Source: a virus
Reading direction: 5' to 3' (one strand)
IMG/VR virus record: IMGVR_UViG_3300035189_000033
Span: 1 to 64,000 of that record
Length of the DNA: 64,000 bases
Part shown: positions 1 through 36,298 of the stretch, in pieces
Layout: each line of letters opens with the position of its first letter
How positions within the stretch are numbered: position 1 is the first letter of the stretch
Translations under genes and position numbers: made by a program
Notes under the pieces: model-generated
What the model was told of the DNA's origin: nothing
What the model saw: the letters and a program-made list of their open reading frames with translations, nothing else
Databases searched by the model: none

Positions 1-2
1 CG

Positions 3-290
3 CCGAATCTGCGGGCGAGGAATGCACCCGCACCAAAGGTCACCTTGCCGCCGATTCAAAGGACTGAACCGCCCCTCGCGCCCCCTCGGGAGGCACCCCA
101 AGCGCCGGTTGTGATCTTCAAGCCCCGCCCGCCCGCCCGCTGCACGTGGCCCATGTGGGGCGCCAAGACCAAGTTCGACGACGACGGCAACCCGCTGCTT
201 TGCGGCGATCCCGCGACGGAGGGGCCGTACTGCGAGGAGCACCGCAAGGTGGCCTTCGTGCGGGCGCCCAGGGCAAGGGCGATGGCGTGA
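3..290 (+). CDS. GcrA-like cell-cycle regulator, C-terminal part (5' truncated)
   Basis: CTWPMWG...LCGDPATEGPYCEEHRKVAF matches the GcrA C-terminal CxWP...CG...PYCxxH motif; the frame is open to the window start. Confidence 0.75.
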   Translation, partial: PNLRARNAPAPKVTLPPIQRTEPPLAPPREAPQAPVVIFKPRPPARCTWPMWGAKTKFDDDGNPLLCGDPATEGPYCEEHRKVAFVRAPRARAMA

Positions 291-745
291 TGGTCGCCTA
301 CAGCTTCAACCCCATCTTCGTCCATCCGATCCTCGCCGGCACCAAGCGCCAGACCATCCGCGCCGAACGAAAGCGCCACGCGCGGCCGGGCGAGGCGATG
401 CAACTCTACACCGGCATGCGGACCAAGCAGTGCGCGCTGATCGCCCTGGCAACGTGCGAGCGCGTGCTGCCGATCCGCCTGCGGATCTCGGATGCGCCAT
501 ACGCGGCGGTTGACGGACGCTTGCTCGGGCTGCTGGCTGGCCTCGATGACTTCGCCCGGTCTGATGGCTTTGAGGACTTTCGTGCCATGCGGCGCTTCTG
601 GGACGTGCACCACCCCAAGGTCGAGGTTTTCTCCGGCGTGCTGCTCCTGTGGGGCGAGCTGGTCGTGCGGGGAGCACGCCTCCGGCATGACGCCGCGGCG
701 AGACCCGCGCAAGAGATGCGCACGACTAGCGCGGCCGTGTCATGA
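290..745 (+). CDS. ASCH-domain protein
   Basis: YSFNPIFVHPILAGTKRQTIR (GxKxxTxR motif), later FARSDGF; its ATG overlaps the upstream TGA. Confidence 0.8.
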   Translation: MVAYSFNPIFVHPILAGTKRQTIRAERKRHARPGEAMQLYTGMRTKQCALIALATCERVLPIRLRISDAPYAAVDGRLLGLLAGLDDFARSDGFEDFRAMRRFWDVHHPKVEVFSGVLLLWGELVVRGARLRHDAAARPAQEMRTTSAAVS

Positions 746-960
746 GCGACGCATTCGTGGTCAACCGTCTCCGCGCAAAGCCGGTCGAATACACGGTGAA
801 GATCAGTCATTACGTATCAGGTGGCGAGTGGGTGATGGGCGTGAGCGTGCATGACCTGTCCGCGCCTGACGAAGTGCAGAAGGAGCGTGTCGCCGCCGAT
901 TTGCGTTATGCGGCTGAACTTCTGGAAACCGGCGAATGGAGTGAATCCAATGCCGGGTGA
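742..960 (+). CDS. hypothetical protein
   Basis: ATGA-coupled 72-aa ORF. Confidence 0.6.
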   Translation: MSDAFVVNRLRAKPVEYTVKISHYVSGGEWVMGVSVHDLSAPDEVQKERVAADLRYAAELLETGEWSESNAG

Positions 961-1017
961 AATTCCAACCCCCGTGAGACCCTCGCCAGACCCGCGCACG
1001 ACCGACGTGGTGCCGCC

Positions 1018-1296
1018 ATGAGCGCGGCCGGCAATGATGCGGTCGCCATCCGCGCCCTTGCTGTGAGGATGGCGCAAGAACTCGACGTTCATGTGGATCG
1101 GGCAGAGGCGGCAGCCCGCAACCTGATCGAGCGTGGCTTGGTCGCCCCGCCGCAGTCCCGGGCTCAGATGCTTATGCTTCTGGCAGCGAAATACATTCGT
1201 AAATATGCCCCCGACCATGCGGTCCACTATGACGAAGCGGACTGCGAAGGTTCCTGCTTGGCCGACGATCTGGAGATCGAGGCTGAGAATGTCTGA
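1018..1296 (+). CDS. hypothetical protein
   Basis: 92-aa ORF within the operon. Confidence 0.55.
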   Translation: MSAAGNDAVAIRALAVRMAQELDVHVDRAEAAARNLIERGLVAPPQSRAQMLMLLAAKYIRKYAPDHAVHYDEADCEGSCLADDLEIEAENV

Positions 1297-28987: not shown

Positions 28988-29713
28988 ATGACCACCGCGC
29001 TTGATCTGATCCAGGACAGCCTCGAAATGCTCGGCGTCTACGGCCCGGGCGATACCATCAGTGCGGCCGACCTCGACCGCTCATTGACCGCACTGAACGA
29101 CATGATCGACTCGTGGTCCAACGAGTCGATGACGTGCTTTGCGTGGCAGCAACTGAGCTTCGCGCTGCAACCCAACATCACGCAATACACCTGCGGCACC
29201 GGCGGCTCGATCAGCACGATCCGCCCGCTGCGGGTGTCCGACGCCGCAGGGTCCGCCTACCTGCTCGATGCGGACAACAACAAATACCCGATGGACGTGC
29301 TGGGTCAGCTCGCGTTCAATCTGCGCACCACGGCGGCAGTGAGTTCCAATCTGCCGGACACGCTGTTCTACGATCCGCAGTTTCCGCTTGGGATCGTCAA
29401 CATCTGGCCGACGCCCTGCCAGGTTTATCAGTGCTATTTCTACTCGTACCTGCAACTCGGCGACTTTCCGACGCCCGAAACCAACGTGTTGCTGCCGCCC
29501 GGCTACAATCTGGCGATCAAGACCAATCTGGCGATCGCACTCAAGCCCTATTTCACCGCCGCCCAGCTTGATCCCATCGTGGTCAGCCGCGCGGCGGAAT
29601 CGAAGGGCAACGTCAAGCGCAACAACAACCGCACGCAGCGGTCGGTGTTCGATCCGGAAATCATCGCCCGCGGGCAATCGACCTATAACATCAGAAGTGA
29701 CCGGAACTACTAG
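28988..29713 (+). CDS. Head-tail adaptor (P22 gp4-like)
   Basis: MTTALDLIQDSLEMLGV...ALNDMIDSW; LPPGYNLAIKTNLAIAL. Confidence 0.8.
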   Translation: MTTALDLIQDSLEMLGVYGPGDTISAADLDRSLTALNDMIDSWSNESMTCFAWQQLSFALQPNITQYTCGTGGSISTIRPLRVSDAAGSAYLLDADNNKYPMDVLGQLAFNLRTTAAVSSNLPDTLFYDPQFPLGIVNIWPTPCQVYQCYFYSYLQLGDFPTPETNVLLPPGYNLAIKTNLAIALKPYFTAAQLDPIVVSRAAESKGNVKRNNNRTQRSVFDPEIIARGQSTYNIRSDRNY

Positions 29714-29731
29714 CGTTTTGAATGGGTTAAC

Positions 29732-32065
29732 GTGGCGCAATCCCCGATCCTCGGCGGCTTCTCCAGGTCGCGCTCAACTTCGGCCAGCGATAACGAGGCC
29801 TACAACCTGTATCTGGAAGTGATTGAAACCAAGGACGGCAAGGTTCCCGGCGCGCTGTATCTGACCGCCGGGCTCGACCTGATCGGCACCCTCGGGCCCG
29901 GCCCGGTCCGCGGCGTGAAACGCCTCAAGGACGTGCTCTACGTGGTGTCCGGCAACGAGGTCTACAGCCTGACACCGAACGGCACCGCCACTCTGCTAGG
30001 GCAGGTGGTGATCGGCAGCGCCCCCGTTTCGATGTTCGAGAACGGCCAGCAGATCATGATCGTCGATGGCGTCGGCGGCTGGCTCGCACCCGGCGGCTAT
30101 CCGGTCACCGGCGGCACTATCACCGGCCAGACGACCAATCCCTCGACCGGTGCGAAGGTGACCCTGACCGGCCTCGCCGGCGGGCTCTATGCGGTGGATG
30201 ACACGATCACCCTGCAATCGGCAAGCGGCACACAGACCAGCTATCCAATCCTCACCGTGACCGCGGTCGCCAACAATCCGGTCACCGTCTACACGCTGGT
30301 CAATCCCGGCACGACATACGCCAGCACGGCCAGCGCCAGCACCACCGGCATTAACGGCCAGGTCGGCGCCGGTAGCGGCCTGACCCTCAATGTCACCGCA
30401 GCCGACGGGGTTGTGACGGCGGCCACGGCCGCCGCAGGCGGCGCCGGCTATGCCGTGGGTGACACCGGGCTGATCAATGTCTACTCGGAGGATGCCGTCT
30501 ACCAGGTGACCGCCGAAAGCGGCGGCGCCGTCAGCGCCGTGCAGATCATCTACGGCGGGACCGAGTACGGCACCGCCAGCGCCCAGGCGACCAAGGCCGC
30601 CCCCGGCGTGCCGGCCAGCGTCGGCACCGGCCTGACGTTCGCTATCACCGCCAGTTCGGGGCCGATCACCGCCTCATCGATCGTCAGCGGCGGCAAGAAC
30701 TACGTCATCGGCAATGTGGGCAAGATCAACGGCGGATCCGCCGATGCGATCTACCGGGTGAGCGCGGTGGGCGCGACCGGCATGGTGACCGGCTTCACCG
30801 TCACCCAAGGCGGCACGGTCAACGACAAGGCCGCCACCTTCACACAGAAATCGACCTCGGGATCGGGTGCGGGCCTGACCCTGACAGCCCCGACTTATGG
30901 CGCGTGGCTGGGCCTCGTGCCGGTCATGCTGCCGTTCGCCAACCCCCTTGTGGGGGGCATCTCGGACGGCTTCGGCGTGCTGGTGTTCCAGGGCACGCAG
31001 TATCTGGCCTCGTCCGACGAACTGGACCTCTCGACCTGGGAAGCGCTGGCCTACGGGGTGTCTGACTCATCGCCCGATCAGTGCATGTCGCTCGCGGTGA
31101 TCCATGACGAAATCTACCTGATCAAAGAAAAGCATACGGAGATCTGGATCGATGCGGGCCTCGTGCCGTTCCCCTTCCAACTGGTCACGTCGGCGCGGAT
31201 GGAGTCTGGCACCATCGCGCCGTTCTCTGCGGCGGCTCTCGGCGAACATCTCTTTTTCCTGTCGCGCAATGACCAGGGCCAGGGCATCGTGGTGCGCGCG
31301 CAAGGCTACAATCTGGTGCCGGTTTCGACGCAGGCGCTGATTGCTGAATTTGACACCTATCCGAACCTCGGCGATGCCATCGGCTACGGCCGCCAGCAGG
31401 GCGGGCATCAGTTCTATGTGCTGACCTTCCCCGAGGCGAACAAGACCTGGGTGCATGACCTGACCGCGAGCGAGATGGCCGGGTTTCCGCTGTGGCACCG
31501 GATCGCCGCCTGGACCGACGGGGCATGGAACCGCCACGCGGGCAACTGCTTCACGCCCTGGCAGGGCGCGGTCACGCGGGTCAACACCACGACCGCCTAT
31601 CAGGCGCAGTCGGTCAAACTGACCACCGAGACGCTGGCCACGGCATCGGGGCTGGTGGGGCTGCCGACAGCGTTCTTCAGCGCGGTGTTCTCGGTCTGGC
31701 TCAATCTGCCCGACACCGGCGCGGCCGGTGTGGTGTTCTCCAATCAGGGCGGATCGGCAACACCCGGCTTGTCCCTCACCATCAAGAACGACGCCGCCGG
31801 ATCGCCGCAGATCACGGTCGAGGCGTGGGACTCTGCTGCCGCGCCGATCGTCGCGGCAACGTATGATTTCACCAATTGGGTCGCCTGGGTGAACATCCTG
31901 ATCTCGATCGACACCGCCACGCAGCAGTTGCAGGTCTACGCCAACACGCTGGTTGCCAACGTGCTGACCGAAACGCTGCTGACGGCGGCCTCGATCACGT
32001 GGTCATCCTCGCACGCGATTGCGCCAGCGGCCACGCAACCGTGGTCACTGGTGGCGGTGGCATGA
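29732..32065 (+). CDS. P22 gp10-like tail hub, N-terminal part with inserted domains
   Basis: GPVRG..LYVVSGNEVY, SPD..., TEIW, VSTQAL, QQGGHQFYVLTFPEANKTWVHD...WHR; lacks the gp10 C-terminus. Confidence 0.85.
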   Translation: MAQSPILGGFSRSRSTSASDNEAYNLYLEVIETKDGKVPGALYLTAGLDLIGTLGPGPVRGVKRLKDVLYVVSGNEVYSLTPNGTATLLGQVVIGSAPVSMFENGQQIMIVDGVGGWLAPGGYPVTGGTITGQTTNPSTGAKVTLTGLAGGLYAVDDTITLQSASGTQTSYPILTVTAVANNPVTVYTLVNPGTTYASTASASTTGINGQVGAGSGLTLNVTAADGVVTAATAAAGGAGYAVGDTGLINVYSEDAVYQVTAESGGAVSAVQIIYGGTEYGTASAQATKAAPGVPASVGTGLTFAITASSGPITASSIVSGGKNYVIGNVGKINGGSADAIYRVSAVGATGMVTGFTVTQGGTVNDKAATFTQKSTSGSGAGLTLTAPTYGAWLGLVPVMLPFANPLVGGISDGFGVLVFQGTQYLASSDELDLSTWEALAYGVSDSSPDQCMSLAVIHDEIYLIKEKHTEIWIDAGLVPFPFQLVTSARMESGTIAPFSAAALGEHLFFLSRNDQGQGIVVRAQGYNLVPVSTQALIAEFDTYPNLGDAIGYGRQQGGHQFYVLTFPEANKTWVHDLTASEMAGFPLWHRIAAWTDGAWNRHAGNCFTPWQGAVTRVNTTTAYQAQSVKLTTETLATASGLVGLPTAFFSAVFSVWLNLPDTGAAGVVFSNQGGSATPGLSLTIKNDAAGSPQITVEAWDSAAAPIVAATYDFTNWVAWVNILISIDTATQQLQVYANTLVANVLTETLLTAASITWSSSHAIAPAATQPWSLVAVA

Positions 32066-32094
32066 CCACACGTAGTGGGAATAGGTATTAAACC

Positions 32095-33126
32095 ATGGGT
32101 ATCTACTTTGTCGGGGCCGAGGATTGTGACTTCCTGAATTTTGGCGGTGGGGTGGTCACCACCGATGGCAGCCATTTCCGTTCCGCCTATGCCCGATGCG
32201 CCTTGCAGATCAACGTCACGACACCGACGAGTTATGGGCTGTCGTCCTACTGGGCGTCACCAACTGGTGCTTTTACGCAATCGTCATTCTGGATGACCGC
32301 CCGCTACTACGACGCTTCAATTTCAAATGGAGGCGATGCTGGCTATCTCGTCCGCTGGAATGATTCCTCCGGGAACGCCCGCCTCCTCGTCGGCTATGAC
32401 TGTCAGAGCAATGACACCGGACCATCGACGTGGCTGTATCAATTAAAAACCGTGGACAGTTCAGGGAATGTCACCATCCTCGCCAATTCGGTAGCCGGTA
32501 TCAACAGTGGCTATGTCGCCAAGCTGGATTTTTATGTCGATTATGCCAGTGCCGGCTCATTCCAAATGTATGTTGATGGCGTGCCGTTCCTCTCCTACAC
32601 CGGCAACCTCACCACCAACGGGCTGACCACGTTGGCTGGCTTCAATCTCGGGCAATCCACACAGGGTAATGATAATGCGGGAATCGTGGCATGGTCGGAA
32701 GTGATCGTATCGTCATCAGACACCCGCTCCATGTCGCTTGAGACGCTTCCGCCGAATGGACAGGGCGCGACCTCGCAATGGACCGGTGATGCGACCGGCA
32801 ATTCCGTCAATGAAGTGGTGCTGAATGACAGCAGCGGGATCTCCTCGGACACCGCCGATCAGATCGAACTCTTTACCCAGCCCGGCACCTCTGTTGCCCC
32901 GTTCATCGCCGCCGTCGCTGTTACCGCCAGGGCGATGACGGCGTCCGGTGCCCCGCAGAACATTGGTCTCCTGCTCCGTTCGGGCGGTGTCACCGGCAGC
33001 TCACCGCCAGAGGCACTGGCAAATTCGTTTGGCTTCCATCAGTACATCTGGACGACCGATCCCGCGACCGGAAATCCCTTTGCCAGCCTCTCTACCGTGC
33101 AGACTGGCATTGAAAGCCTGGCGTAA
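32095..33126 (+). CDS. putative tail/receptor-binding beta protein (lower GC), inserted between the gp10 halves
   Basis: 343 aa, Ser/Thr/Gly-rich, with more A/T-ending codons than its neighbours. Confidence 0.75.
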   Translation: MGIYFVGAEDCDFLNFGGGVVTTDGSHFRSAYARCALQINVTTPTSYGLSSYWASPTGAFTQSSFWMTARYYDASISNGGDAGYLVRWNDSSGNARLLVGYDCQSNDTGPSTWLYQLKTVDSSGNVTILANSVAGINSGYVAKLDFYVDYASAGSFQMYVDGVPFLSYTGNLTTNGLTTLAGFNLGQSTQGNDNAGIVAWSEVIVSSSDTRSMSLETLPPNGQGATSQWTGDATGNSVNEVVLNDSSGISSDTADQIELFTQPGTSVAPFIAAVAVTARAMTASGAPQNIGLLLRSGGVTGSSPPEALANSFGFHQYIWTTDPATGNPFASLSTVQTGIESLA

Positions 33127-33950
33127 TGACCGGCGTTGGCGTCAGCAAACTCAACACCTACGCCGCCATCGTTCCGCAGATCACAAGTCTGTCGAAATTC
33201 AACACTTACATCATCGGCAGCACCATGGCGCCGCCACCCGTCACAATCGCCGATCTGTTCTTCACGCCGACCGCGGAATTCGTCGATCTGACCGTGCTGG
33301 CGAACCGCCGCGCCTTCATCTCGGCCGCCGGCGGGGCACAGCTCCTTAGAGCGGACGGATCAGCCCCGTTCGGCGTCACCCCGCCGGTGTTCCTCACCTC
33401 GAACGGCACGCCTGCCACCTTCGCCGACAACAACGGCCGCGGCGGCGCCTTCTCGATCTCGGGCGGGACTCTGACAGCAGGCCCATCCAACCCGCCCGGA
33501 TCGTCGCAGACCGTCGTCACGTCGCAACAGAACTCGCCCGGCGCCGGCGTGCTGGGCGACTACGCCTCGGGCAACCTCTATGCGTTCAATGTCAACAGCC
33601 TGACCGACAACGGCATCCGCCGCCGCTGGCTCCGCCGCTGGCGGGCGCTGCCCAAAGCCAGCATGGCCGCTGACCGGTTCTACTCGCTGTCGGTGGCGAT
33701 GCAGACCGGCCAGGGTGTGCCGAACGGCGTCGAACCGCAGGTGGTGCTGCGGTGGAGCGATGACGGCGGGCGAACCTGGTCCGATGAACGCATCGTCGCG
33801 GCCGGGCCGCTGGGTGCGACGACGCAGACCGTGAAGTTCAACCGGCTGGGCGCGACGCGGCGGTTTGGCGGATCGGACAGGATTTTTGAACTGTCATCCT
33901 CGGACCTGTTCCTGGTAGCGATCCTGGACGCAGATGTGGACGTCGGATGA
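33126..33950 (+). CDS. P22 gp10-like tail hub, C-terminal part
   Basis: GDYASGNLY...TDNG, MQTGQG, PQVVLRWSDDGGRTWS, FNRLG..RIFELSSSD. Confidence 0.85.
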   Translation: MTGVGVSKLNTYAAIVPQITSLSKFNTYIIGSTMAPPPVTIADLFFTPTAEFVDLTVLANRRAFISAAGGAQLLRADGSAPFGVTPPVFLTSNGTPATFADNNGRGGAFSISGGTLTAGPSNPPGSSQTVVTSQQNSPGAGVLGDYASGNLYAFNVNSLTDNGIRRRWLRRWRALPKASMAADRFYSLSVAMQTGQGVPNGVEPQVVLRWSDDGGRTWSDERIVAAGPLGATTQTVKFNRLGATRRFGGSDRIFELSSSDLFLVAILDADVDVG

Positions 33951-34534
33951 TGCCAATCCCGTTTCTGATCACCGGACTGCCGCGCTCGCGGACGGCCTGG
34001 ATGGCGGCGGCGGCGTCCAACGACCTGTCTATCTGCATCCATGAACCGCTGCGCTATGTCGAACGCTGGCAGCATGTGTTCGAGACCGTATGGGGCATGT
34101 CGGGTTTCCGGTATGTCGGCGCCTCTGACCATGGCCTGGGCTTCCATCTGCCTGAAATCTTCCGGCGCCTGACCCCGCGCACCCTGATCATCGAACGCCC
34201 GATCGCCGAGGTCGAGGCGTCGCTCGCGCGGATCGGCATTCCAGGGAGCAATTTCTGCGAGCTGCTGATGGAGGCGCTGAACGGGTTTGATCATCCACTG
34301 ATCATGCGCGTGCCCTATGCCGATCTGGCGGACACAGAGGTCGTGGGGCGCTGCCTTGCCCACCTGATGCCGTTCAATCCCGTCTCAGCGGCGCGCATCG
34401 AGGCACTGCAGAAGATGAATATCCAGGCACCGAACCTGAATGCGGTGGTCGCGGAGGGCATTCGGCGCGGCCAGCAAGGCGATGCCGCCGCGCTGGTCGG
34501 TGAGGATGTTGTGGCGCGGATCCGCCTGCATTGA
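33947..34534 (+). CDS. sulfotransferase-like P-loop protein
   Basis: FLITGLPRSRTAW...HEP; IIERPIAEVEASL. Confidence 0.6.
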   Translation: MMPIPFLITGLPRSRTAWMAAAASNDLSICIHEPLRYVERWQHVFETVWGMSGFRYVGASDHGLGFHLPEIFRRLTPRTLIIERPIAEVEASLARIGIPGSNFCELLMEALNGFDHPLIMRVPYADLADTEVVGRCLAHLMPFNPVSAARIEALQKMNIQAPNLNAVVAEGIRRGQQGDAAALVGEDVVARIRLH

Positions 34535-35307
34535 CCGAAAAGCCCGTCATCCTCGCCCCGCGCGAGCCGCTCGTCGACCGCTCCGGCCAGATTTCGCGGT
34601 CCTGGTGGCGCGCATTGAACGGGCTGTTTGAGCAGTCCGGCACCTTGGCAAAGGCGCTGGTAACCAATCCCTCCGCGGTGCTGGCCTCGGTCGACGTCAG
34701 CAGCGGCGGCACGATTTCCGCACCCGACCTCGCCGCGAAAAGCCTGATCGGCAATCCGGCCGACACCACGGCGCAACCCGTGGCAATCGCGGTATCTGAC
34801 TCGTTCGCGCTCAATTCCGGCACGCTCGATCTCGCCTCGCTGGCGGCTGGCACGCTGTCGGGCAACGGCGGGCTGTTCAGCGCCCCACCCGGGGCTGTCA
34901 GGGTCGGCAGCAACCTCACCCTCGCCAACGGCACGCTCGACGTGTCCTCGACCAGCGACATGACAGACCAGACCTATGCCTATTCGATCCGCGACACGCG
35001 CGGGCCGGTCAACACCGCCGACCGGGCTGCGGCCGATGCGCTGACCCTCGCACTGCTGGGGGGATCGACATCATCACCGAGCGCGGCGCCGATCACCGTG
35101 GCCGCCGACAGCCTGTTCGGTAACGCCGGCACGGTGGCCGCCAGCGGCAGCAGTATCGCCGTCGGCACCGGCCTGACGCTCTCGCCCGCCGGCACGCTCT
35201 CGGCCACCGGCGGCGGGATCTACGCCCCGCTGGTCAACGGCGACCTGCCAAGCCCGGGGCTGATCGCCGATCCGTTCGGCCAGTGCATCATGGTGCAAAT
35301 CCGATGA
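34531..35307 (+). CDS. tail protein (needle position)
   Basis: APREPLVDRSGQISRSWWRAL N-terminus, typical of genes that follow gp10. Confidence 0.65.
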   Translation: MTEKPVILAPREPLVDRSGQISRSWWRALNGLFEQSGTLAKALVTNPSAVLASVDVSSGGTISAPDLAAKSLIGNPADTTAQPVAIAVSDSFALNSGTLDLASLAAGTLSGNGGLFSAPPGAVRVGSNLTLANGTLDVSSTSDMTDQTYAYSIRDTRGPVNTADRAAADALTLALLGGSTSSPSAAPITVAADSLFGNAGTVAASGSSIAVGTGLTLSPAGTLSATGGGIYAPLVNGDLPSPGLIADPFGQCIMVQIR

Positions 35308-35822
35308 CCTCCAGCATTCTCACCGACTATCTCGGCCAAGGGCCTGCGGCATCGCGGCCGGCGACGCCACCGATCGGCACTGCGGCGCTGGCGTTCTACT
35401 ACGCCGACGATACCGGCGTGCTGTCGCTGTGGGACACCGCGACCAGCGCCTGGGTAACGGCGGGCGGCGCCGGCCTGTCGACCTCCAACACCTGGACGGC
35501 GGCACAGATCGGCGCCGTCGTGACGCTGACCGACGGCGCGACGATCACCGCGAATTTCAGTCTGGGCAACAACTTCGCGGTCACGCTTGGCGGTAACCGC
35601 ACGCTGGCCAATCCATCCAGCGTCAATGCCGGGCAGGGCGGGCAGATCGTCGTCACCCAGGACGGCACCGGCGGCCGGACGCTCGCCTATGGCTCGGACT
35701 GGAAATTCCCCGGCGGCACGGCTCCTGTGCTGTCGACCGCGGCCGGTGCGACCGACATCCTGAGCTATTACGTCGTCAGCTCGACGTTTATTGCTGTCAG
35801 TCCGGCGCTGGCCTTCGCTTAA
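35304..35822 (+). CDS. tail-fibre-like protein
   Basis: LTDGATI...TLGGNRTLANP...QDGTGGRTLAYGSDWKFPGGTAPVLST fibre domain. Confidence 0.75.
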   Translation: MTSSILTDYLGQGPAASRPATPPIGTAALAFYYADDTGVLSLWDTATSAWVTAGGAGLSTSNTWTAAQIGAVVTLTDGATITANFSLGNNFAVTLGGNRTLANPSSVNAGQGGQIVVTQDGTGGRTLAYGSDWKFPGGTAPVLSTAAGATDILSYYVVSSTFIAVSPALAFA

Positions 35823-36298
35823 TGGCCGCGCACCGTTACTGGCGGATCAATATAACCGCGGTGCTGCCAAGTGCGACCAACGTCAATCTTGCTGAGATAC
35901 AAATGGCATCTTCGGTCGGGGGCGCCGATCTGTTCGGCTCAGGCACGGCTTTGGCGTCGTCTACGCAGGGCGGTATCTATGAGCCGTCTGCCGCCTGTGA
36001 TGGCAATCTAACGACATTCTGGAGCAGTGCGCCCGCGGATTCGTTGCCTCAATGGTGGGGCTATGACTTCGGCGCGGGCAACAGCGTGGTGGTGAATGAG
36101 GTTCGGATCTACCCGCTCGACTACAGTAGCGTTCTCTACGCACCCACCGCCTTCACGCTGGACTATTCGGACGACGCATCGGCCTGGACGGCGGTGCAAG
36201 CCTTCACCACGGCCGGCTGGTCGGTCGACACGTGGCAGAGCTTTGACGTGACCGTGGCGCCGGCTGCGGTAAGGTTTCGCGGCTTGTTGGGGTTCTAG
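35822..36298 (+). CDS. discoidin/F5-8-like domain tail protein
   Basis: RYWRINIT, ASS...ACDGNLTTFWSS, WWGYDFG, YSDD...WT. Confidence 0.7.
   Translation: MAAHRYWRINITAVLPSATNVNLAEIQMASSVGGADLFGSGTALASSTQGGIYEPSAACDGNLTTFWSSAPADSLPQWWGYDFGAGNSVVVNEVRIYPLDYSSVLYAPTAFTLDYSDDASAWTAVQAFTTAGWSVDTWQSFDVTVAPAAVRFRGLLGF

Follow-up and report, generated by a model that had tools for sequence, protein, structure and literature searches.

Genes for a probable two-chain tail hub of the P22 gp10 type in an environmental virus clade

Split hubs and the closest described systems

The tail hub of a short-tailed phage is usually seen as a conserved scaffold, made of a single chain, that carries fibres or spikes as separate parts. 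We describe here three tightly packed open reading frames (ORFs) on the + strand, each in another frame, at positions 29732-33950 of a 64,000 nucleotide stretch of viral DNA (hereafter the window; positions 1 to 64,000 of the 86.5-kb IMG/VR virus record IMGVR_UViG_3300035189_000033). The first and third of these, ORF1 and ORF3, encode complementary parts of a hub of the P22 gp10 type, and we consider it about 80% probable that their products make up a functional tail hub of two chains. DNA of the window recurs in metagenomes, many of them from peat and others from lakes and permafrost.

The best documented split hub is that of Pseudoalteromonas phage phiRIO-1, in which tubular tail B is divided into gp44 and gp40, the intervening segment is not an intron (Hardies et al., PMC4819975), and the two pieces form separate bands in sodium dodecyl sulfate polyacrylamide gel electrophoresis (SDS-PAGE) of virions (PMC4819975); its genome record places gp41 through gp43 between the pieces. 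Hardies et al. found such splits to be uncommon in tubular tail B alignments and remarked on the arrangement in Vibrio phage VpV262 (PMC4819975). In the latter (our locus L127, 9596-13713, minus strand) ORFN, ORFO and ORFP repeat the three-gene order of the window: ORFN is the main part of the hub (911 amino acids (aa), with a C-terminus that is substituted according to the paper), ORFO has 359 aa, and ORFP is the detached C-terminal piece of 98 aa. Like the window, phiRIO-1 encodes a podophage hub/nozzle protein of the same superfamily as two chains with genes between them, and in both cases two ORFs correspond to complementary, non-overlapping parts of the hub while the interrupting segment is protein-coding and not an intron. 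Unlike the window, phiRIO-1 falls in another homology group (Zobellviridae, T7/SIO1-like tubular tail B); no insert domain or series of variable modules has been described for it, whereas the split form dominates the clade to which the window belongs (122 clusters). No relation of phiRIO-1 gp42 and gp43 to the window's middle gene, ORF2, was detectable. VpV262 is of a very distant lineage, its detached piece is much shorter, and no insert domain is known at its break.

In the hub of phage Sf6 the apical, adaptor-binding domain is built from N- and C-terminal extensions (PMC9728967), and in that of Pa223 it consists of residues 2-46 plus 403-512 (bioRxiv 10.1101/2025.06.11.659172). Residues 354-387 of the 513 in the Pa223 protein, an extension of the last propeller blade before the apical arm, form an outward loop for fibre attachment (bioRxiv 10.1101/2025.06.11.659172). 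The window hub belongs to the same family as the P22 gp10, Sf6 gp8, Pam1 and Pan3 hubs (PF11134 Phage_stabilise; PHROG 578), the profile of which is covered by ORF1 and ORF3 together. It differs from P22 gp10 in being encoded as two polypeptides, in carrying a Gly/Thr-rich insert, and in having in its last blade a ~220-aa domain with a variable module, present or formerly present, inside it.

A two-chain hub with genes between its parts is thus of a known kind, since the phiRIO-1 split and the VpV262 layout precede it, and these precedents temper the novelty of the present locus, which is an unusual but widespread variant and not a new kind of system. What is new is that the split affects the gp10-type family, that the break lies inside a nested, putative display domain, that a full series from unsplit to split forms exists, and that the split form dominates a large clade; to these can be added the turnover of modules at the break, an orphan second C-terminal fragment, and the presence of an ORF2-family gene between the hub pieces of VpV262 too. 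A literature search found no paper on these new points.

Hub parts in ORF1 and ORF3

ORF1 (29732..32065, + strand, 777 aa) and ORF3 (33126..33950, + strand, 274 aa) match consecutive segments of PHROG 578, the P22 gp10-type "head closure Hc3" profile of 486 positions. Residues 412-615 of ORF1 align to profile positions 150-345 (expectation value (E) 2.4e-53), its N-terminal stretch is also matched, and ORF3 residues 142-272 align to positions 345-468 (E 2.1e-12). In Rhodoferax phage P26218 and similar unsplit genes, the residue corresponding to ORF1 ~612 abuts that corresponding to ORF3 ~139. Among solved structures ORF1 matches the "Stabilization protein" 9vyg_M of cyanopodophage Pan3, and ORF3 matches C-terminal residues 309-409 of the cyanophage Pam1 hub 7eeq_1 as well as sialidase Asp-boxes; its hub C part (33540..33950, + strand, aa 139-274) contains an Asp-box (LRWSDDGGRTWS). 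A local Pfam scan of ORF1 and ORF3 returned nothing at E <= 0.1, and PF11134 is precomputed on nearly all ORF3 homologues. No other gp10 C part besides ORF3 was found in the window's genome, and relatives 73-77% identical to ORF1 stop at the same position.

The gene order agrees with that of P22 gp10-type hubs, which lie directly after an adaptor-like gene. The gene upstream of ORF1 (28988..29713, + strand) probably encodes a P22 gp4-like head-to-tail adaptor, the docking site of the hub; it matches phrog_12985 (E 7.2e-34) and, weakly, phrog_637 "head-tail adaptor Ad3" (E 3.4e-5), and an adaptor-like gene is found in the same place in three relatives (L002, L003 and L004). ORF1 and ORF3 thus share with the hub family the profile match, the fold (by way of the unsplit relative described below) and the position beside a gp4-like adaptor gene, with tail-fibre-like genes following.

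The fold was examined by AlphaFold2 on P0157, an unsplit relative of 1069 aa that has 61% identity to ORF1 and serves as a natural fusion of the two halves. Its hub N part (residues 1-410) and hub C part (residues 935-1069) are both modelled at a predicted local distance difference test score (pLDDT) of >90. Between them lie three regions, here called L1 (residues 467-574, pLDDT 74-88, nine beta strands), the nested module (residues 581-835, pLDDT <35) and L2 (residues 836-930, pLDDT ~43-60). The model has the fold of P22 gp10-type hubs, an interrupted six-bladed propeller plus an apical domain made from both termini, with Z of 33-39. In superpositions that span model range 1..1069 it aligns with the Pan3 protein 9vyg_M (Z 38.7, 425/445 residues aligned), P22 gp10 8eap_D (Z 36.1, 440/471, root mean square deviation 2.5), the Pam1 hub 7eeq_1 (Z 34.3, 423/442), Sf6 gp8 7sg7_S (Z 33.4, 436/471) and the Pa223 hub 9nwi_Y (Z 25.0). 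Generic WD40 propellers align to P0157 residues 43..951 only, residues 952-1069 being the C-terminal arm, and because this alignment ends at ~951 the insert is placed in the last propeller blade.

The domain that is broken between the two chains is ~220 aa in size and all-beta in the P0157 model. Its first part, L1, occupies aa 613-777 of ORF1 (31568..32062, + strand) and its second part, L2, aa 35-138 of ORF3 (33228..33539, + strand), with the IADLFF strand first. Two proteins, P0006 and P0405, carry contiguous single-chain copies of it, and L1 and L2 cover consecutive segments of these: L1 aligns to P0006 20-128 (E 1e-6) and P0405 442-545 (E 5e-13), and L2 to P0006 143-225 (E 3e-15) and P0405 578-657 (E 2e-10). 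At the same hub site the 906-aa protein P0273 has the domain intact, with neither break nor nested module, and mean column identity in L1 is 68% across nine loci. These homologies support the reading that L1 and L2 make up one domain in two chains. Searched with an L1 profile, PDB sequences gave chance-level matches only, and hhalign of L1 against the ORF2 family gave a probability of 4%, which is not significant. The name "LamG-like" for the insert is motif resemblance only, because Pfam and PDB sequence searches give it no name.

Domains of the same type also occur in another gp10 subfamily, in P0405 (775 aa) and P0301 (989 aa), where they occupy another loop, immediately ahead of the Asp-box strand; P0301 seems to have two or three of them. 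The domain has therefore entered hub proteins more than once, which suggests that it is a recurrent, portable decoration of hubs.

The second insert of ORF1, the Gly/Thr-rich stretch of ~280-285 aa (30104..30964, + strand, aa ~125-411), is absent from plain gp10 proteins and shorter in P0157. The phrog_6005 "virion structural protein" profile matches it weakly (aa 148-374, E 0.0027). By eye it contains three tandem ~85-aa units (G.G.GLTL..TA..G.ITA...GG..Y.VGD.G.I....DA.Y.VTA...G.V..F....GG); self-BLAST of the insert listed no repeat pairs, so this three-unit reading is one of inspection only.

An earlier note on this DNA, made from its letters and translated ORFs, had proposed a gp10-like hub in two polypeptides, encoded in three ORFs in three different frames, with a ~280-aa Gly/Thr insert in the first, a break within an inserted domain that the third ORF finishes, and a middle 343-aa gene of lower G+C content. 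All of this is borne out by the profile segments 150-345 and 345-468, by the position of L1 and L2 on P0006 and P0405, and by the coordinates and compositions of the three genes (for the last, see below); the comparison of the parts with the gp10 family, which that note had put forward as the check to make, gave complementary regions.

Spread of the split and the modules at the break

The ORF3 homologues fall into 240 clusters. Just over half (122) are stand-alone C-fragments of 190-773 aa that consist of L2 and the hub C part, 101 are unsplit hubs without the insert, mostly of 470-480 aa, and eight are unsplit hubs of 1069-1425 aa that have the insert and a module nested at the same loop. The site is uninterrupted in P0200 (741 aa; ...NCFTPWGG...GVLGDY). 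In a 50%-identity library, N-fragments of 566-857 aa have their last residue where ORF1 has it. The halves are in different frames at eight distinct loci, viral or metagenomic (L002, L008, L012, L013, L016, L017, L019 and L116), with identity to the N part of ORF1 ranging from 78% down to 51%. At six of the eight no gene lies between the halves (L012 has intervening genes, and the junction of L116 was left out of this count), and the second chain opens with a variable module fused to L2; its start is an ATGA overlap with the first chain in L002, L008, L013, L017 and L019, and in L016 the two are 4 nt apart. Minimal C-fragments of 236-240 aa have no module and begin exactly at L2, with the strand IADLWF. 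Gap content differs wholly among relatives, some of which have none and others up to 1.85 kb. When viral contigs were scanned with the single sequence of ORF3 or of ORF2 nothing was found; for the ORF2 family, whose full alignment is too variable for such a scan, a subset of close members gave matches.

The split is therefore older than ORF2, and it is old and under selection. The earlier note had held that the inserted gene caused it; this part does not stand, given the six split relatives in which no gene intervenes, the minimal C-fragments that lack a module and an ORF2 family that is never fused to a C-fragment. The search for unsplit relatives that it called for was successful, in the 1069-1425 aa proteins with a nested module and in the 101 clusters without insert.

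Two small features of the window may record its history. The TGA stop of ORF1 (32063-32065) overlaps an ATG at 32062 in the same ATGA arrangement as in the relatives, but the frame so opened closes after only nine codons (MTTRSGNRY*, 32062..32091, + strand); this stub is probably a remnant of an ancestral, translationally coupled start of the second chain. ORF3 begins with a leader (33126..33227, + strand, aa 1-34) that is common only to P0001 (98% identical), and by eye its motif FNTYIIGS..PPP resembles the segment that precedes the PP linker in the unsplit P0123, P0124 and P0133 and in P0010; it is possibly what is left of the last strand of a lost module.

Two other loci show further variation in the gap. 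L012 (2554-7705) has an 862-aa N-fragment with an extra C-terminal tail of "WNDGG" repeats, followed by a tail-fibre-like gene, an 84-aa ORF and a minimal 236-aa C-fragment, and is a second case of genes between the halves. In L003 (8331-8560) the N-fragment is followed by a GTGA overlap and a short stub; the next gene, which starts MALIATEGFGFSTAIADYV, is neither ORF2 nor any known module, and the contig ends before a C-fragment. The likeness of the L003 stub GTGACCGGCGGCGGCGTG to the start of ORF3 in the window ATGACCGGCGTTGGCGTC extends over only 18 GC-rich nt and is too weak for any argument.

Pfam searches of 93 C-fragments identified FN3 domains in nine and an F5/8 type C domain in one, and HAF-repeat names (from the source annotation) and precomputed cadherin-like Pfam hits occur among the N-termini of C-fragments. 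P0006 carries an extra copy of the insert domain, and other modules are apparently SPRY-like by eye. This mix, and its turnover at a fixed junction, would be typical of receptor-binding parts, and from the domain types and their position we give binding of receptors by the modules a little better than an even chance. Of the earlier note's picture, a two-chain platform for swappable receptor-binding domains, the two chains and the swappable, adhesin-like modules hold, and receptor binding stays at this lower strength. A C-fragment cluster of 732 aa (P0198) carries a DNA methylase domain (PF01555, E 5.8e-30), which could stem from a fused gene call and not be a true module. When the modules were clustered by single-linkage BLAST, 96 of them fell in one cluster, probably through common linker or boundary residues, and the clustering was not used.

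One genome holds a second C-fragment. The 88.4-kb record IMGVR_UViG_3300047331_000009 has a normal pair of N- and C-fragments (L004, L010), the latter with a HAF-repeat module, and ~58 kb away a complete orphan C-fragment of 585 aa (L015:5948-7705), whose 345-aa module is unrelated and which has no N-fragment in its vicinity. The cognate and orphan C-fragments are 68% identical in their shared part. The orphan's neighbours are an ATP-grasp-like gene (so judged by eye) and a gene for a tail-collar fibre. In the window's genome their counterparts lie side by side (64429-65703 and 65725-66687; 84% and 77% identity), and since they adjoin there (65703/65725) the 88.4-kb relative is the same genome type with an extra insertion. 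This suggests that a single N-fragment can accept different C-fragments as partners. That the split hub is a combinatorial host-range device, in which one N-fragment and alternative C-fragments with different display modules, encoded beside it or at another place in the genome, give hubs of different or mixed specificity, is a doubtful extension of this. The cluster pairs P0172/P0174, P0044/P0195, P0012/P0164, P0121/P0131 and P0007/P0137 each seem to share a contig, which hints at more genomes with two C-fragments; the scan of metagenome contigs returned 12 loci only and no further double-C-fragment case.

We propose that each hub protomer is built from the two polypeptides. ORF1 would give the apical N-terminal arm, almost all of the six-bladed beta-propeller and the initial two-thirds of the insert domain. 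ORF3, as predicted from the model of P0157, would complete that domain, close the last blade with its strand(s) and provide the other, C-terminal arm of the apical domain, which binds the adaptor. The chains would lock non-covalently at three sites by beta-strand complementation, one in the insert domain, one in the last blade and one in the apical domain. The break falls at the insert-domain loop that houses the variable module in unsplit relatives, and in split relatives the module forms the free N-terminus of the second chain; because the break coincides with this module-bearing loop, the insert domain may be an outward-facing pedestal, in the place taken by the fibre-attachment loop of the Pa223 hub. 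Most likely the modules would be adhesins or receptor-binding parts, exchangeable by recombination with the body of the hub untouched. Like the window's insert, the Pa223 loop is a last-blade extension before the C-terminal apical arm, and it points outward from the hexamer and recruits tail fibres; it differs in being a loop of ~34 residues that binds a separate fibre, as opposed to a whole domain with nested or appended modules at which the chain is broken.

Several observations weigh against this proposal or against parts of it. ORF1 and ORF3 are known from their genes alone, and it is from these that we infer their shared presence in the virion and their binding to one another. The insert domain is not named by Pfam (contiguous copies, ORF1, ORF3 and the unsplit relatives) or by PDB sequence searches, and because in P0157 the model is poor for L2 (pLDDT ~43-60) and fails for the nested module (<35), the complementation of L1 by L2 and the fold of the insert rest on sequence homology. 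The equivalence of the insert and the Pa223 loop is positional, by residue proportions and not superposed coordinates. Only 11 of the 93 modules receive a Pfam name (FN3 nine, F5/8 type C one, DNA methylase one) and most have none, so that "adhesin" is a generalisation. Lastly, the closest viral homologue of ORF2 (54% identical, in L089) lies between capsid and adaptor genes, a point to which we return below.

If the two-chain hub is correct, variable binding modules have become part of the hub in a large environmental clade, and the hub gene has been cut at exactly that point, which makes the half that carries specificity exchangeable and possibly duplicable, with the rest left untouched. The forms found make up a natural series (plain hub, hub with insert domain, hub with nested module, split hub, and split hub with a separate gene in the gap) that should be useful for studying how an essential assembly protein acquires domains and how its gene comes to be split. 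There is also a lesson for annotation, in that C-fragments of 236-773 aa and N-fragments of 566-862 aa are easily mislabelled as truncated or hypothetical.

ORF2, alternative readings and neighbouring genes

ORF2 (32095..33126, + strand, 343 aa) matches phrog_6368 over its full length (E 1.4e-32). Its AlphaFold2 model (pLDDT 86.8, predicted TM score 0.88) shows a concanavalin-A/LamG-type jelly-roll followed by a second beta-sandwich, making it a two-domain protein of lectin fold. The N-terminal domain matches the concanavalin-A-like lectin/glucanase fold with a Foldseek probability of 1.00; sugar binding is a prediction only. Its PDB neighbours include glucuronan lyase 2zzj (E 1.3e-6, TMt 0.60), polysaccharide lyases, carbohydrate-binding domains, the lectin domains of calreticulin and Aap, TeNT Hc (the tetanus-toxin binding domain) and legume lectins. 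Full-length matches in BFVD are uncharacterised phage proteins (TM 0.74-0.79), and a weaker one (TM 0.63) is annotated "virion structural protein". ORF2 differs in composition from its neighbours, with 57.3% G+C versus 65.8% in ORF1 and 67.9% in ORF3 after the leader, and 67% G+C at third codon positions versus 84-85% in the other two; the 29-nt spacer before it has 44.8% and the ORF3 leader 52.9% G+C. ORF2 homologues are all stand-alone genes of 320-383 aa, none of them fused to a C-fragment, and they occur at other places in structural modules too (L089, L106); with the six relatives that have no gene in the gap, this indicates that ORF2 was a later, compositionally foreign arrival in a gap that already existed. 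It is probably a secondarily inserted, lectin-like virion protein, a binding protein encoded separately from the hub. In the scheme proposed above, the window would have lost its fused module except for the 34-aa leader and would have acquired in the gap a gene translationally coupled to ORF3.

The hub could be of two chains and ORF2 a mere passenger, an independently mobile virion or moron gene (encoding for example a decoration protein or an accessory lectin) that came to lie in a permissive gap and has no tie to the hub, and we regard this as a serious contender that falls somewhat short of even odds. The family's stand-alone genes would fit it, as would the separate acquisition implied by the distinct G+C values, the L089 homologue between the capsid genes and the adaptor gene, and a homologue in a Brevundimonas siphophage just after the tape-measure gene; because family genes thus also lie away from hub genes, the place of ORF2 here may be incidental. 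Yet members of the family recur close to hubs: in L106 one immediately follows an unsplit gp10, and in L100 and L108 gp10 is no more than a few kb away. VpV262 ORFO, between the main gene of tubular tail B and its detached C-terminal piece, is a remote ORF2 homologue (hhalign probability 97%, E 1.2e-10, 278 columns), and the VpV262 protein Q8LT51, which is ORFO by length match only, matches ORF2 structurally over its full length (TM 0.78). In addition, the TAA stop of ORF2 and the ATG of ORF3 at 33126 have one base in common (TAATG), and in L012 a tail-fibre-like gene occupies the same gap. We consider a physical tie of ORF2 to the hub rather less likely than not.

Two other explanations deny the two-chain hub itself. 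The hub could be a single polypeptide after all, through splicing of an intron, programmed frameshifting or ribosomal bypassing, as might be thought from the tight packing of the ORFs, the ATG that overlaps the ORF1 stop and the existence of unsplit, single-chain relatives. This is very improbable. Rfam, including its group I and II introns, has no match in 29000-35000 at E <= 1, and in the gap lies an entire gene whose product folds well and has many stand-alone homologues; among relatives the content of the gap varies from nothing to 1.85 kb. The frame entered at the ATGA overlap closes after nine codons, inspection found no slippery heptamer where ORF2 meets ORF3, whose frame is open for only four codons ahead of its ATG, and the pieces of the phiRIO-1 hub run separately on SDS-PAGE. 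A metatranscriptome contig (X19, 33048-33271) spans the ORF2/ORF3 junction, which is no proof of transcription or of a protein product.

The three-gene layout has been assembled independently. Contigs from another peat study (X2) and from a lake-water study (X7) bridge both the ORF1/ORF2 and ORF2/ORF3 junctions with no indels, and the independent Joint Genome Institute contig L115 has the same layout with an ORF2 that is 99.1% identical. Another run, X3, gave no such contig although its word share was 0.85, which can be a false absence. A decaying hub gene or an assembly artefact, with ORF1 or ORF3 a non-functional remnant or the whole a chimera, would suit the metagenomic origin of the window and the frameshifts, typical of poor sequence, in its relative L125, but is the least probable explanation of all, as these contigs rule out the misassembly that the earlier note had said would undo its claim, both halves have kept many invariant residues over deep divergence (122 clusters of C-fragments, and N-fragments with as little as 51% identity), and the genome has no other copy of the gp10 C part, which supplies the apical, adaptor-binding domain in solved hubs.

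Downstream of ORF3, the genes at 33947-36298 are candidates for further binding parts beside the hub. The first, a phrog_10855 ("hydrolase") gene, has a start that overlaps the ORF3 stop; it is followed by two tail-fibre-like genes and then by a gene for a 158-aa F5/8 type C (discoidin) protein at 35822-36298.

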